Virus record (IMG/VR): IMGVR_UViG_3300032397_000003 | Span: 1-64,000 of that record | Source: a virus | Strand: one strand, 5' to 3' | DNA: 64,000 nucleotides | Part shown: piece by piece, positions 26,670 through 60,119 of the stretch | Layout: every line of letters starts with the position of its first letter | How positions within the stretch are numbered: position 1 is the stretch's first letter | Translations under genes and position numbers: made by a program | The notes under the pieces: model-generated | Told to the model about the DNA's origin: nothing | The model's database searches: none | Seen by the model: the letters and a program-made list of their open reading frames with translations, nothing else

Positions 26670-27884
26670 TTATTTATTAGTATTAAAAAATTCTTCATGT
26701 TTATTATAATGTTTTTGTAAAAAATACTCTTCTTCCAATCTTTCATAATTTTCAATATACCACTCAATTTTATCTTTGTTTTCTTCGACAAATTTTAAAT
26801 AAATATTTCTTTGCTTTGAATATTTAGTCTTATTAGCAGGAATTTGTAGTATCTTTAGAATTCTATAAAAAGAGGCATAACCTAAAATATGATTATGATT
26901 TTTATTATATAATTCAAATAATTCAGTTATTTCAATTATATCAAAATAATATTGTAGTATGAAAGATATATCTAATTCAACATATCCTGCATGGGATTTA
27001 CCTACATTCACTTTATTTTCTATTCTCTTCTTCCCACCTTTTTCTCCTGCTCTTTTCATTATAGATGGATCATCATTTTTAGTTTTCATTTCTTTTTCTT
27101 TTTGCTTTACTATAATATCTGGATTATCTTTAAAAGCTTGTTTGATATTATTTATTTTTTCTTGTTTTTGATCTGGAGTTTTATTTTCCCAATTTTCAGA
27201 TAATTTTTTATTTGCATTAAGTTTTATGTCTGGATTTTGCTCTAAGGTTATTTTTAAATTTTTAACTTGATTCTCTACTATTTCAGGATTATCCTTTTTT
27301 GTTTTACTAGCTTTTTTTCCAGCATTTTTCATTATAGAGGGATCATTTCTTTTAGTTTCCATTTCTTTTACTTTCTTTTTCTTCTCGTAGTCTGGAATGT
27401 TATTTATAGTTTTTTTATAATTTTGTACCCGTTTCTCCTCATTTTCTTTAGATAACCCCCTACCACCATCTCCTCCATTTCTCATATTGGTTAAAATACC
27501 TAATTTTTTATCAGCTCTACCAATCATTTTTATAAAAAATCTTTCCAATAAATAAGAAGTTTCTTCTTCTAAATTTTCACAAATTTTATAAATTACAACC
27601 TCTTTTCCTTCACGATGAATCTTATTTATTGTATTAACTTTATGTCTATTGTATTTTGGTTTTTCTTCTTGAATCGATTCTGCTTCATATTTTTTAATTC
27701 TATTAGCTTCATTTAAATGATCGTTCAGTCTTAAATCTTTTCCTTTACCAATATAAAATGGGGCACAGGGAAAGTCGATACCAATCCCATTTTCTTGATA
27801 ACTATAAATTCCTGGTTTTAATGGATTACAATAAACGTATACATAAAATCTTAAATCATTCATACTATTACCTATTCTTATCAT
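26670..27884 (-). CDS. Free-standing GIY-YIG (LEM-3-like) homing endonuclease
   Basis: FYVYVYCNP...PFYIGKGK..R..DH...ERFFI...LTNMRNGGDG followed by K-rich repeats; may start at 27863. Confidence 0.82.
   Translation of the reverse strand: MIRIGNSMNDLRFYVYVYCNPLKPGIYSYQENGIGIDFPCAPFYIGKGKDLRLNDHLNEANRIKKYEAESIQEEKPKYNRHKVNTINKIHREGKEVVIYKICENLEEETSYLLERFFIKMIGRADKKLGILTNMRNGGDGGRGLSKENEEKRVQNYKKTINNIPDYEKKKKVKEMETKRNDPSIMKNAGKKASKTKKDNPEIVENQVKNLKITLEQNPDIKLNANKKLSENWENKTPDQKQEKINNIKQAFKDNPDIIVKQKEKEMKTKNDDPSIMKRAGEKGGKKRIENKVNVGKSHAGYVELDISFILQYYFDIIEITELFELYNKNHNHILGYASFYRILKILQIPANKTKYSKQRNIYLKFVEENKDKIEWYIENYERLEEEYFLQKHYNKHEEFFNTNK
26675..26682 (-). promoter_or_regulatory. TACTAATA promoter for portal, embedded in last codons of endonuclease
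   Basis: AAT ACT AAT AAA TAA; 29 nt upstream of portal ATG. Confidence 0.7.
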
Positions 27885-27922
27885 TTAATTTTAATAGAAA
27901 ATTGCCGTAATCTATTATTTAT

Positions 27923-28007
27923 TAGTATAGAAACTTTGGAAGAATATAAAAGGATAAGACTCTTATATTCTTATCAGTCGGCAAACCTATCCAAAATTTC
28001 TATACTA
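27923..28007 (-). ncRNA. Structured leader / antisense-like RNA upstream of endonuclease
   Basis: 18-bp closing stem and 13-bp inner stem, each with a G-U pair only on the minus strand; loops complementary to downstream sites. Confidence 0.55.
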
Positions 28008-29567
28008 CTATAACTTCCATTCATTATTGATATATACTATTGCTTGTTTCATACCATTTTCAAATAGTATACCATTTCCATGTAACCAAGATGAAGCACC
28101 ATCACTATTATATAATTGTTGTAATTCACAAAGACAAGGTATCTGTAATACATCCCTCCAAATATTATATGAATGACTATGTCCTATAATAGCTTTATTA
28201 TATGCTATTTCTATTCCTCTAAAACTACCCTTTGATCCATTACTTCCAGCATGCCCATGAGTATTCATTTCACATCCATTGATAATAAAAGATTGCCCTT
28301 TTCTCAGAAAAATATGATTACTGATAGTAAAATGTTTTTTAAGATACTCTTCAATTGGATTTTTATTATTGGCTAAATAAAGAAATAATTCAGCTCCTAT
28401 TTTCATATTTGCTACATCTTTTACAAATTCCCCTTCCTCTAGATATCTATTTACAAAATAATTATGATTAGAATGTATATGATAAAATTTTATATCTGGG
28501 AATTCTTTCTGCCACTGTTCTAAAAAATTACCTAAATAATTTAATTCTTTTTCTAAAGATTGTTGATGTTCATCTACTTGAGTTCTTAATCCATTTTTAT
28601 TTTTTGTATGAGGATTTATAGATAAAGCATCGAAACTATCATGTATAAATATATTTTTAGGTTCACATAGAGAGGTAACTTCTTTAAATAGTGTCATAGC
28701 TTTTTGAGATTCTACTCCTATATGAGGTTCACATATAAGTGAGTTTACTTTTAAATTTGTAACTTTATTATTTGTATAATATTTATTTAAATCTTGAAAT
28801 CCTTTACCGTCAAAGCGAATTGCACGTTGATGAAAGATTTTATCATCCTTTACTTCTATAATCCATCCAGCTAAACAATTATCTTCTTTAGCTATTTGTC
28901 CTTGTCTTGTATTTGCATAAGTAGGTGTACATATAGTTCCAGTACTTAATACAATATGAGGTGTTTCATTATGTTGTTTTGGAATAGTATTTAACATTTG
29001 TTTTGAATGAGCTATGATAAGAGATTGTTTTTTACCCCCATATCTTTGTAATCCTGATAAGGGTAATATCTGTTGGGGACTTAACATAAAATCTTTTGCT
29101 ATAAGATTACTATTAAAAATATACTCAGTTATAAAATATTTTGAATATTTTTCTATAGTAGCTTCTGAAAATGAATCGTTACTATTAACCCCCCTCATAA
29201 CAAATAAGAGTGGTTGAGCTTGATTAAATTCACAGTAATTAAGTATAGACTCCCAGAATAATTCATTTATTTTTGAATTAGGTATAATAGATGATATAAA
29301 ATATTTCTTATTCTTTTCTTTATTTGTAAATTTTATATCTATGTCTTCTCTAGCTACAGTATTTTTATTTGTTATTAGTTCCTTCTTAGCCAATGTAAAT
29401 GAACCATAATACTTATCTATTAAAGATTCATTATATTTACCATGGCTCCTATAATAACCTCTAGTTATTTCTTTATTATTTTTTTTAAAAAACTCATTAT
29501 GTAAACACTGAATATCCTCTAGTACTGATTTCTTTGTTCCAGTTAAAAGTTTTTGATTGATTGTCAT
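28008..29567 (-). CDS. T5 A1-like metallophosphoesterase/nuclease
   Basis: HDSFD, HSNHN, HGHAGSNGSKGS, IGHSHS, SSW motifs; N-terminal helical repeat. Confidence 0.72.
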   Translation of the reverse strand: MTINQKLLTGTKKSVLEDIQCLHNEFFKKNNKEITRGYYRSHGKYNESLIDKYYGSFTLAKKELITNKNTVAREDIDIKFTNKEKNKKYFISSIIPNSKINELFWESILNYCEFNQAQPLLFVMRGVNSNDSFSEATIEKYSKYFITEYIFNSNLIAKDFMLSPQQILPLSGLQRYGGKKQSLIIAHSKQMLNTIPKQHNETPHIVLSTGTICTPTYANTRQGQIAKEDNCLAGWIIEVKDDKIFHQRAIRFDGKGFQDLNKYYTNNKVTNLKVNSLICEPHIGVESQKAMTLFKEVTSLCEPKNIFIHDSFDALSINPHTKNKNGLRTQVDEHQQSLEKELNYLGNFLEQWQKEFPDIKFYHIHSNHNYFVNRYLEEGEFVKDVANMKIGAELFLYLANNKNPIEEYLKKHFTISNHIFLRKGQSFIINGCEMNTHGHAGSNGSKGSFRGIEIAYNKAIIGHSHSYNIWRDVLQIPCLCELQQLYNSDGASSWLHGNGILFENGMKQAIVYINNEWKL

Positions 29568-29598
29568 TGAATTTTTAATTCTCCTTTAAAAGATTGTT

Positions 29599-29631
29599 TA
29601 CTAATAATATTAAAATATTTTTTAATTAGTA
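29599..29631. promoter_or_regulatory. Face-to-face class A promoters (TACTAATA + at 29599-29606; TACTAATT - at 29624-29631)
   Basis: Both motifs lie between the divergent genes 29567(-) and 29644(+). Confidence 0.6.
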
Positions 29632-29643
29632 TAAGGGATAAAT

Positions 29644-30363: not shown

Positions 30364-31014
30364 ATGGATGATCAATCAAATAGATTAACAAAATCATCGG
30401 GATTTACAATAGCCGATATCGTGAAATTATCTTGGAAATACTACCGTTCCAAAGAAGGTGATAATAAAAATACAAGAATGAAAGTAGATATCAAATCTGC
30501 TAGAGTCACAAAAAGACAAAATTATCAGTATGATCCTTCTACAAAACAGTTTGAACAAACTGGGCGTGATATTCGTTTGGATTTTATTGTGGCATCTGAT
30601 CCTAAATCATATAAGAAAACTGACAACATTAAAATACATAAATATCCCGTGACGTTTATCATTCATTCTTTAGAATTAGGGATGTTTTCAACTTTCAAAC
30701 TTCGTGAAGGGGGTTTGAAAAAACCTATATTTGCAAATCCCAGTATGTCCTCTCAACAAATAGGAGAAAAAAATATTAGGAATGGAGTGGATATGCATTT
30801 TGTGTATTCCCTTATGTTTGTTTATAAAAAGTATAATTTATTATTTGGAAGGAACTATACAAGTAGACCCCCCATAAAAACTAACCCTAAAATGATACCT
30901 TATTTTGGAAAACATTCATTTTTCATCGTAAAATTTATTCTACCAAAATTGATTGGAACTAATGGTGGGATACTTGCTAATGCAATATATAAGAATGATG
31001 GAAAAAACAAATAG
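30364..31014 (+). CDS. Basic hypothetical protein
   Basis: 216-aa ORF. Confidence 0.7.
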   Translation: MDDQSNRLTKSSGFTIADIVKLSWKYYRSKEGDNKNTRMKVDIKSARVTKRQNYQYDPSTKQFEQTGRDIRLDFIVASDPKSYKKTDNIKIHKYPVTFIIHSLELGMFSTFKLREGGLKKPIFANPSMSSQQIGEKNIRNGVDMHFVYSLMFVYKKYNLLFGRNYTSRPPIKTNPKMIPYFGKHSFFIVKFILPKLIGTNGGILANAIYKNDGKNK

Positions 31015-39615: not shown

Positions 39616-39687
39616 TATAATATATAGAAATATTTATTAAAATTAAAATTTATTTTTTAATTTATTCATTATTTTCTATATATTATT
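39616..39687. promoter_or_regulatory. Back-to-back class B promoters at the main strand switch (- 39616-39647; + 39656-39687)
   Basis: Two oppositely oriented copies of TTTAATTTW-N9-TTCTATATATTAT. Confidence 0.78.
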
Positions 39688-48268: not shown

Positions 48269-49921
48269 ATGAAAAAAATTGAGAAATTAACAAAAAAGCA
48301 AGAAGCACAATTAGAAGTTTATAGAGATAAGTGGCTTGCTATAGGTTTATCTACAGAGCAACCTTCTTTTGAAAGAACAAAAGAAATAATAGATAATGTT
48401 TATATTCATTTATTAGAAAAACCTATTGTTCCTGTAGTAGTACTTGATAATCCTTATGATACATGGGTAGCAGTTTGTATACATGCTTCAGAAAGGAATC
48501 AAGTTGGGAATCAAGTTAGGAATCAAGTTTGGAATCAAGTTGAGAATCAAGTTAGGAATCAAGTTGGGAATCAAGTTAGGAATCAAGTTTGGAATCAAGT
48601 TGAGAATCAAGTTAGGAATCAAGTTGGGAATCAAGTTTGGAATCAAGTTGAGAATCAAGTTTGGAATCAAGTTGAGAATCAAGTTGAGAATCAAGTTTGG
48701 AATCAAGTTGAGAATCAAGTTGGGAATCAAGTTGAGAATCAAGTTTGGAATCAAGTTGATAATCAAGTTAGGAATCAAGTTTGGAATCAAGTTGAGAATC
48801 AAGTTGAGAATCAAGTTGAGAATCAAGTTAGGAATCAAGTTGAGAATCAAGTTGAGAATCAAGTTAGGAATCAAGTTGAGAATCAAGTTTGGAATCAAGT
48901 TAGGAATCAAGTTGGGAATCAAGTTGAGAATCAAGTTGGGAATCAAGTTGAGAATCAAGTTAGGAATCAAGTTGAGAATCAAGTTTGGAATCAAGTTAGG
49001 AATCAAGTTGAGAATCAAGTTTGGAATCAAGTTAGGAATCAAGTTGAGAATCAAGTTGAGAATCAAGTTTGGAATCAAGTTGAGAATCAAGTTGGGGATC
49101 AAGTTGAGAATCAAGTTGAGAATCAAGTTTGGAATCAAGTTTGGAATCAAGTTGGGAATCAAGTTAGGAATCAAGTTGAGAATCAAGTTGAGAATCAAGT
49201 TGAGAATCAAGTTTGGAATCAAGTTTGGAATCAAGTTGAGAATCAAGTTAGGAATCAAGTTAGAGATCAGAAAAATTTATTAAATTTTGTCTATCCATAT
49301 TTAGATGGAAATTTAATGTCAGGATATTTTTCTTTTTATGATTTCTGTTTAAATGAATTAAAAGTAGATTTAGATATTAAATTTAAAAATATCTTTAATG
49401 TTTATAAAGATACTTCCGAATTATCTTTAATTTATCCTTTTGATGATATCTGTTTTGTTTGTTCTAAACCAATAGAGATTTATTTTAACGAAAACAAAGT
49501 ATTACATAATTCTAATGGGGCAAGTATTAAATATAAAAATGGATTTGAATTATATCATCTTAATGGAGTTAAAGTAACAAAGGAAATTGTAAAAATTAAA
49601 CCAGAAAAAATTACTGTTAATATGATTTTACAAGAACAGAACGTAGAAGTAAGGAGAGAGCTTCTGAGAAAACTTGGTATAGATAATTTTATTAAAAAAC
49701 TTAAAACTAAACCAATTGATACCCCAGAAGATAAAGTATATGAACTTTATAAATTTAAGATCGGAAATGATATAGACGCTACGTATCTTAAAATGTTAAA
49801 TCCCTCTTTAAAAGATACTTATCATTTTGAAGGGGTAGCTAATAGTTGTAAAACAGTAGAGGAAGCACTTGCATGGAGAGATTCAGAAGATGTATATATT
49901 AAACCAATAGAATTGACATAG
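48269..49921 (+). CDS. DUF6745-like protein with long NQV[ERWG] repeat
   Basis: IEKLT..Q...Y.DKW..IGLST N-terminus; LHN..G.SI.Y.NG..LY.LNGV, EQNVEVRR, LKM.NPS C-terminus. Confidence 0.75.
   Translation: MKKIEKLTKKQEAQLEVYRDKWLAIGLSTEQPSFERTKEIIDNVYIHLLEKPIVPVVVLDNPYDTWVAVCIHASERNQVGNQVRNQVWNQVENQVRNQVGNQVRNQVWNQVENQVRNQVGNQVWNQVENQVWNQVENQVENQVWNQVENQVGNQVENQVWNQVDNQVRNQVWNQVENQVENQVENQVRNQVENQVENQVRNQVENQVWNQVRNQVGNQVENQVGNQVENQVRNQVENQVWNQVRNQVENQVWNQVRNQVENQVENQVWNQVENQVGDQVENQVENQVWNQVWNQVGNQVRNQVENQVENQVENQVWNQVWNQVENQVRNQVRDQKNLLNFVYPYLDGNLMSGYFSFYDFCLNELKVDLDIKFKNIFNVYKDTSELSLIYPFDDICFVCSKPIEIYFNENKVLHNSNGASIKYKNGFELYHLNGVKVTKEIVKIKPEKITVNMILQEQNVEVRRELLRKLGIDNFIKKLKTKPIDTPEDKVYELYKFKIGNDIDATYLKMLNPSLKDTYHFEGVANSCKTVEEALAWRDSEDVYIKPIELT
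48497..49261 (+). repeat. 64 copies of 12-bp unit AATCAAGTT-NNN (NNN = GAG/AGG/TGG/GGG)
   Basis: Directly visible; 765 bp = 63x12+9. Confidence 0.97.
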
Positions 49922-59998: not shown

Positions 59999-60017
59999 CT
60001 TATTTAAATCTTAGATA

Positions 60018-60119
60018 GATTTTGTCGAAGAGAATAAATACAAAATTCAATGGTATATTGATAATTACGAAAGATTAGAAGAAGAGTATTATATAAATAG
60101 ATTGGCTACTAATAAATAA
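60018..60119 (+). pseudogene. 3' remnant of a paralogue of the 26670-27884 endonuclease, carrying a TACTAATA promoter
   Basis: FVEENKYKIQWYIDNYERLEEEY versus FVEENKDKIEWYIENYERLEEEY (20/23 aa); both end TNK-stop; no start codon. Confidence 0.85.

Follow-up and report, generated by a model that had tools for sequence, protein, structure and literature searches.

The CI RNA of satellite phage P4 is a small RNA derived from a leader; it pairs with the transcript of the same operon at two complementary sites and causes premature transcription termination. The C4 RNA of phages P1 and P7 is encoded upstream of its target and in the same direction, and carries two loops whose complements lie farther along the same transcript, one of them at the ribosome-binding site; it is processed and acts in trans on icd/ant in lysogenic immunity. 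The role of C4 in the immI operon has been described (PMC8198154). For homing endonucleases, a lock on the ribosome-binding site that is bypassed by a late promoter is established for T4 I-TevI, I-TevII, I-TevIII and segB and for mobE of Aeh1, and promoters of downstream genes are embedded in several T4 seg and mob genes (PMC2988022).

The element described in the present study lies, like the gene that follows it, on the minus strand of a 64,000-nt stretch of DNA from an uncultured phage (IMGVR_UViG_3300032397_000003, positions 1–64,000; hereafter the window). The genome that begins with this stretch is 155.6 kb long, has a G+C content of 29% and carries direct terminal repeats. The element resembles the T-even systems in that the leader RNA of long transcripts is proposed to pair with the region of a homing endonuclease gene to which the ribosome binds, in that a short -10-type phage promoter, here only predicted, is placed so that a shorter transcript would lack the inhibitory strand, and in that the endonuclease gene contains a predicted promoter for the gene that follows it (26674–26682). 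However, the T-even structures are single local hairpins, whereas the inhibitory strand here is a hairpin loop carried on a conserved three-way junction 60–100 nt upstream, and a second, kissing-loop contact docks that loop to give a double pseudoknot. There is no sequence relation between the two, and one leader serves two unrelated nuclease families here.

The likeness to C4 is that the two loops of the element match two downstream sites, one of them at or near the ribosome-binding site. The element differs from C4 in showing no evidence of processing, in having an endonuclease target and a lytic-type phage host, and in that one of its targets is itself a hairpin loop. The CI RNA terminates transcription, whereas a block of the ribosome-binding site is proposed for the element, and the two are alike neither in structure nor in sequence. 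No match on the element was obtained with cmscan when positions 27000–29000 of the window were compared with all 4227 Rfam 15 families at E ≤ 10, or when eight homologous loci were scanned against Rfam 15 at E ≤ 1, ribozyme, riboswitch and C4 models included. The element is thus not a member of the C4 family (RF01695), and the term c4/CI-like, under which a first-pass annotation of this DNA had entered it, can be kept only as an analogy. The literature searched contained only T4-type hairpins, and this RNA was found neither there nor in Rfam 15. We regard it as a well-supported RNA family, the two-contact kissing-loop architecture of which is a new form of the T4 I-TevI logic.

Fold and parts of the leader in the window

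The gene behind the element encodes a GIY-YIG homing endonuclease (26670–27863, minus strand; PF22945, E = 4.5e-12) of 397 amino acids when read from the second ATG (27863–27861; MNDLRF...), which was chosen as the start on the basis of gene callers and homologues. It is preceded by an A1-like gene of 519 amino acids (PHROG 1745, 'DNA transfer protein') and followed by a 694-aa gene of unknown function; a 'portal' identity proposed for the latter had no support and was withdrawn.

Folding of the 145-nt minus-strand RNA with RNAfold gave a minimum free energy of -35.6 kcal/mol (z = -4.4), which was equalled by none of 200 shuffled sequences, and both P1 and P3 were present in the minimum-free-energy structure. 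All parts that follow are on the minus strand. P1 consists of 18 bp, including one U-G pair, between 28007–27990 and 27940–27923; its 5′ arm (27990–28007) begins directly 3′ of the stop codon of the A1-like gene (28010–28008), and the 3′ end of its 3′ arm (27923–27940) overlaps the promoter-like class A motif TACTAATAA (27919–27927). P2 (27976–27987) is a 3-bp stem, GGU/ACU with a closing G-U pair, that carries the 6-nt kissing loop UUGCCG (27984–27979), and P3 (27941–27971) has a 12-bp stem with one G-U pair and the anti-RBS loop UCUUAUC (27959–27953). Downstream of the motif, the P4 hairpin (27892–27917) presents in its loop the sequence CGGCAA (27907–27902), an exact complement of the P2 loop, so that the P2 contact is one between two loops, that is, a kissing contact. 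The exact complement of the P3 loop, GAUAAGA (27876–27882), comes next, followed by the Shine-Dalgarno sequence AGGU (27870–27873), which corresponds in the alignment to GAGGU in homologous leaders. In the nested fold the Shine-Dalgarno region is free of pairs and does not lie inside a single local hairpin; its contact is a long-range loop pairing.

The first-pass annotation had given the positions of the loops, their complements, P1 and AGGU correctly on the minus strand, and had also recognized that the class A motif overlaps the 3′ end of P1. Its P3 loop stands, although the stem that it counted as 13 bp has 12, and the complementarity of CGGCAA to the P2 loop is exact, although the enclosing P4 hairpin (27917–27892) had been missed. 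GAUAAGA had been placed on the first ATG and next to the AGGU of the second. It does overlap the G of that codon (27884–27882), but because the second ATG is the true start, the site falls at -19 to -13 and thus just 5′ of the Shine-Dalgarno sequence rather than on it.

Copies of the element and their gene contexts

Related copies were found by searching with the endonuclease protein and fetching the contigs, and one more was found with the junction covariance model R1. This gave 14 distinct copies, the window and 13 further ones, from metagenomic phage contigs, and every one of them stands directly before an endonuclease or endonuclease-like gene. In 13 of the 14, the window included, this gene encodes a GIY-YIG endonuclease, with 37–80% identity to that of the window among the relatives; the 12 further copies of this kind occupy at least five gene contexts, and the genes upstream vary (A1-like, SNF2 helicase, DHH phosphoesterase, ClpP-like protease and others). 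The fourteenth copy (L004:2794–2950) precedes a 359-aa protein without similarity to the GIY-YIG enzyme, which matches DUF7487, weakly DUF559, and the PHROG 'homing endonuclease' family 3339. L004 comes from a close relative, with an A1-like protein 88% identical to that of the window, and where the window has the endonuclease and the element, L004 has three small ORFs and lacks both; there is one copy of the element in the window's genome and one in L004. The joint absence of endonuclease and element at this site in L004, together with the varied upstream genes, indicates that the element is part of the nuclease cassette rather than of the genes around it. Directly upstream of the L004 leader copy there is a clean hairpin-plus-U-run terminator (L004:2740–2790), so that read-through into that junction should be only partial.

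The element was absent at the distant GIY-YIG homologues of the cultured phages BCSR5, BcepSaruman, Mater and nACB2, at more distant metagenomic homologues and at L018. A blastn search against GenBank phages gave no match, and DNA-pattern scans of IMG/VR with the P2 region, alone or combined with the motif, gave only chance matches in coding DNA; IMG/VR contains few relatives.

The position of P1 at the stop codon of the upstream gene would also be expected if the fold belonged to the 3′ end of that gene, as a terminator, an RNase III site or an RNA-stabilising end, and had nothing to do with control of the endonuclease. P1 and P3 could stack into a long helix, and U-runs follow P1 in 9 of the 14 copies, as such a structure might have. 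However, the element travels with the endonuclease and not with the upstream gene, the two covarying loop–target pairs described below would be left unexplained, and neither an intrinsic terminator nor a terminator-like site was predicted at the element in the window. We consider this reading highly improbable. Given the lack of a predicted intrinsic terminator, transcripts of the upstream gene are expected to run on into the element in the window.

Intact leader-plus-endonuclease cassettes were also seen at other intergenic sites in the helicase/AAA/DHH block of relatives, after the helicase gene in L015 and L102 and after the DHH gene in L103. Between a 478-aa gene and the DHH phosphoesterase gene of the window there is a 34-aa open frame (60015–60101, plus strand) that is 69% identical to residues 363–391 of the GIY-YIG endonuclease and is directly followed by TACTAATAA (60107–60115); it has the appearance of a remnant of an endonuclease cassette that was lost, with the embedded promoter left behind. 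On a near-identical phage contig, an IS605 OrfB/TnpB (Cas12f-like) gene (L013:1–469, minus strand) adjoins the 236-aa gene, and its place is taken in the window by a 216-aa ORF (30364–31014). The window also contains about 63 copies of a 12-bp tandem repeat (48352–49100, plus strand) within an ORF at 48269–49921.

Architecture and long-range contacts of the family

The same architecture was present in all 14 copies. P1 ranges from 7 to 18 bp, with only the inner 7–8 bp conserved; P2 has 3 bp, usually with a closing G-U pair, and a 6-nt loop; and P3 has 11–13 bp and is enlarged in L029 and L031. A spacer of 5–38 nt after the junction leads to TACTAATAA or a variant with one or two base changes. 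The distance is 7–15 nt from the end of the motif to the 6-nt P4 loop, 14–23 nt from the P4 loop to the P3-loop complement and 4–12 nt from the complement to the ATG. The motif lies between the junction and P4, and hence before both targets, in each of the 14 copies.

The junction itself is nearly invariant, with UA in J1/2, GA-N-A in J2/3 and no linker between P3 and P1, and the stems vary. Such a pattern might be taken for a sensor leader, in which the junction recognises a ligand or a protein, such as the endonuclease itself, and so sets the closure of the lock. Geometry alone, however, also predicts a conserved junction, and no Rfam riboswitch or ribozyme matched; a sensor is therefore, in our estimation, very unlikely. 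A hammerhead-like three-way junction was also considered and dropped, the strands being UA / GA-N-A / none and not CUGANGA / GAAA.

In the model-fitted alignment of the junction, 93.8% of the cells pair and 16 of the 22 pairs change on both sides, a result reached by none of 500 shuffles; in slid registers the pairing drops to 41–56%. The full-length model R2, in which the kissing helix is treated as a pseudoknot, gave 92.5% paired cells and 28 compensatory pairs out of 35, with a pair score above all 500 shuffles and all slid registers. Compensatory changes were found in 6 of the 8 pairs of P1 (97% paired), 2 of the 3 pairs of P2 (100% paired, in the junction alignment) and all 7 pairs of P4, as well as in 4 of the 6 pairs of the kissing helix despite four misaligned rows. 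The alignments behind these counts were fitted to the model; for the junction, a plain MAFFT alignment agreed with the model-fitted result.

MAFFT alone mis-registers P3, P4 and the Shine-Dalgarno region, and the anti-RBS contact was therefore tested sequence by sequence and not by alignment columns. This complementarity test was confined to loop interiors, because matches in the A/T-rich spacer swamped a wider test. Read in register, the P2 loop and the P4 loop are Watson-Crick complementary at 83 of 84 positions over seven loop variants, and among 5040 permutations only the true pairing reaches the observed score. The P3 loop has an exact complement of 6–11 nt located 5–21 nt before the start codon in 14 of 14 copies, overlapping the GAGG/AGGU Shine-Dalgarno sequence in about 12 of them. 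Cognate P3-loop duplexes have a mean of -12.0 kcal/mol, compared with -6.4 kcal/mol for non-cognate ones, and none of 20000 permutations reached this. The window has the weakest P3-loop contact of the 14, with seven A/U-rich base pairs (-7.2 kcal/mol) that end 2 nt 5′ of the Shine-Dalgarno sequence. Thus both complementarities are conserved and covary in the 13 other copies, whereas a lack of conservation in homologues would, according to the first-pass annotation, have refuted the proposal. At the level of sequence comparison, the structure and the covariation of both long-range contacts are demonstrated.

The inverted repeats on both sides of the promoter-like motif could instead act as DNA, in the form of an operator, a cruciform or a recombination scar, and there is a precedent in I-TevI, which acts on DNA to repress the late promoter of its own gene (PMC2988022). 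The base pairs do not favour this. Across the copies there are 37 G-U pairs but only 6 A-C pairs, which assigns the structure to the sense RNA, and the irregularities of the window stems point to the minus strand as had been proposed (one U-G in P1, one G-U in P3). Furthermore, the opposite strand folds worse (-28.0 kcal/mol in the window), one target is at the ribosome-binding site, and the half-sites are 60–100 nt apart. We give a DNA palindrome next to no credence.

Loop–loop kissing is typical of antisense systems that act in trans, and the loops differ between the copies like barcodes. One could thus imagine that the junction is freed as a small RNA, as with c4 of phage P1, by a promoter of its own plus a terminator or by processing, and represses endonuclease mRNAs through both loops. 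Four of the 14 copies do have the class A motif TACTAA(T/C)AA 9–13 nt ahead of P1, and in nine a stretch of five or more U occurs within 25 nt after P1. On the other hand, the window, L014, L015 and L102 have neither the upstream motif nor the U-run, every copy has its target in cis to the junction, 61–107 nt away, and there are no orphan copies in the window's genome or in its relative L004. Moreover, if transcription starts 5–8 nt after the motif (the start is unmapped), the short mRNA may begin within the 5′ arm of P4. Action in trans on the cassette's own mRNA, short transcripts or the matching cassette of another phage in the same cell included, is not excluded, and a stable small RNA, if it exists, would amount to a c4-like antisense immunity system carried by selfish endonuclease cassettes. 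Free antisense RNA action is not shown, and we think it unlikely, although it deserves to be kept in mind; action in cis is more economical. The readings as a terminator or 3′ end, a DNA palindrome or a ligand sensor account for less of the evidence.

Promoter-like motif and proposed control of the endonuclease

TACTAATAA occurs 16 times in the window, where 3.5 copies are expected, and 33 times in the genome, compared with 8.4 for shuffled 9-mers. Twenty of the 33 copies in the genome lie 13–70 nt ahead of the start of an ORF with the same orientation, as against 9% for shuffled 9-mers and 1 of 33 in the antisense orientation, and copies are found before the tail sheath, tape-measure-like and baseplate genes. 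The motif therefore behaves as an orientation-specific upstream signal. These counts support its assignment as a putative late-type promoter without a -35 element. Its position in the leader and its behaviour across the genome are established from the DNA, whereas promoter activity is inferred and there are no transcription start site data. The second copy at the cassette (26674–26682, minus strand) lies in the last codons of the endonuclease gene (...NTNK, stop), 28 nt before the 694-aa gene. The A1-like gene upstream of the element also has a class-A-like motif, TACTAATTA, and a clean early-off, late-on switch is thus not evident in the window.

Two further observations concern promoter-like motifs elsewhere in the genome. 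Between the A1-like gene and the 236-aa gene, two divergent motifs of the class A type overlap and form an inverted repeat (29568–29643), with TACTAATTA reading on the minus strand and TACTAATAA on the plus strand; similar back-to-back pairs are present at genome positions 115473/115504 and 139100/139131. Another conserved upstream motif, TTTAATT-N13-TCTATATATTATA, makes up a second class with 21 copies in the genome, mostly on the plus strand and between 39 and 148 kb, and precedes replication genes among others (for example at 39675, 44781, 48198, 61146 and 62822 of the window, plus strand); it is reminiscent of a sigma-70-type promoter whose -35 element is unusual.

We propose that the element is probably the 5′ regulatory module of a mobile homing-endonuclease cassette, a cis-acting translational lock that is bypassed by the cassette's own promoter. 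On transcripts that read through from the upstream gene, the leader would form the three-way junction P1/P2/P3 first. The 6-nt P2 loop would then kiss the 6-nt P4 loop, and this contact would hold the P3 loop against its 6–11-nt complement at or just 5′ of the Shine-Dalgarno sequence. With the P3 loop on the ribosome-binding region, the 30S subunit would be excluded and the endonuclease not made. Transcripts started at TACTAATAA, between the junction and P4, would lack the junction and be translatable, so that the output of endonuclease would be set only by the cassette's own promoter, wherever the cassette lands. The translational repression and the timing in this scheme are inferred, as neither RNA nor translation data are available.

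Two-loop pairing combined with promoter bypass, as put forward in the first-pass annotation, thus remains the best explanation and is supported; the late gating that accompanied it is only an inference, and in the window it has to reckon with TACTAATTA upstream. The case for the window is weaker than that for its relatives. Its P3-loop contact is the weakest and lies beside the Shine-Dalgarno sequence, and the upstream gene has its own class-A-like motif; for these reasons we prefer insulation from upstream transcription as the reading for the window, which it fits better than an early-to-late switch. A T4-like temporal reading applies to other copies, in which the upstream genes are replication genes, again with the timing inferred.

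Homing endonucleases need to be expressed without harm to the phage that carries them, and the T4 examples suggested that a simple hairpin was the solution. The family described here would do the same job with a portable and more elaborate leader, through two covarying long-range RNA contacts. This leader accompanies the nuclease gene into many genomic contexts, and at least two unrelated nuclease families share it; it may represent a barcode-like natural design for context-independent translational insulation.
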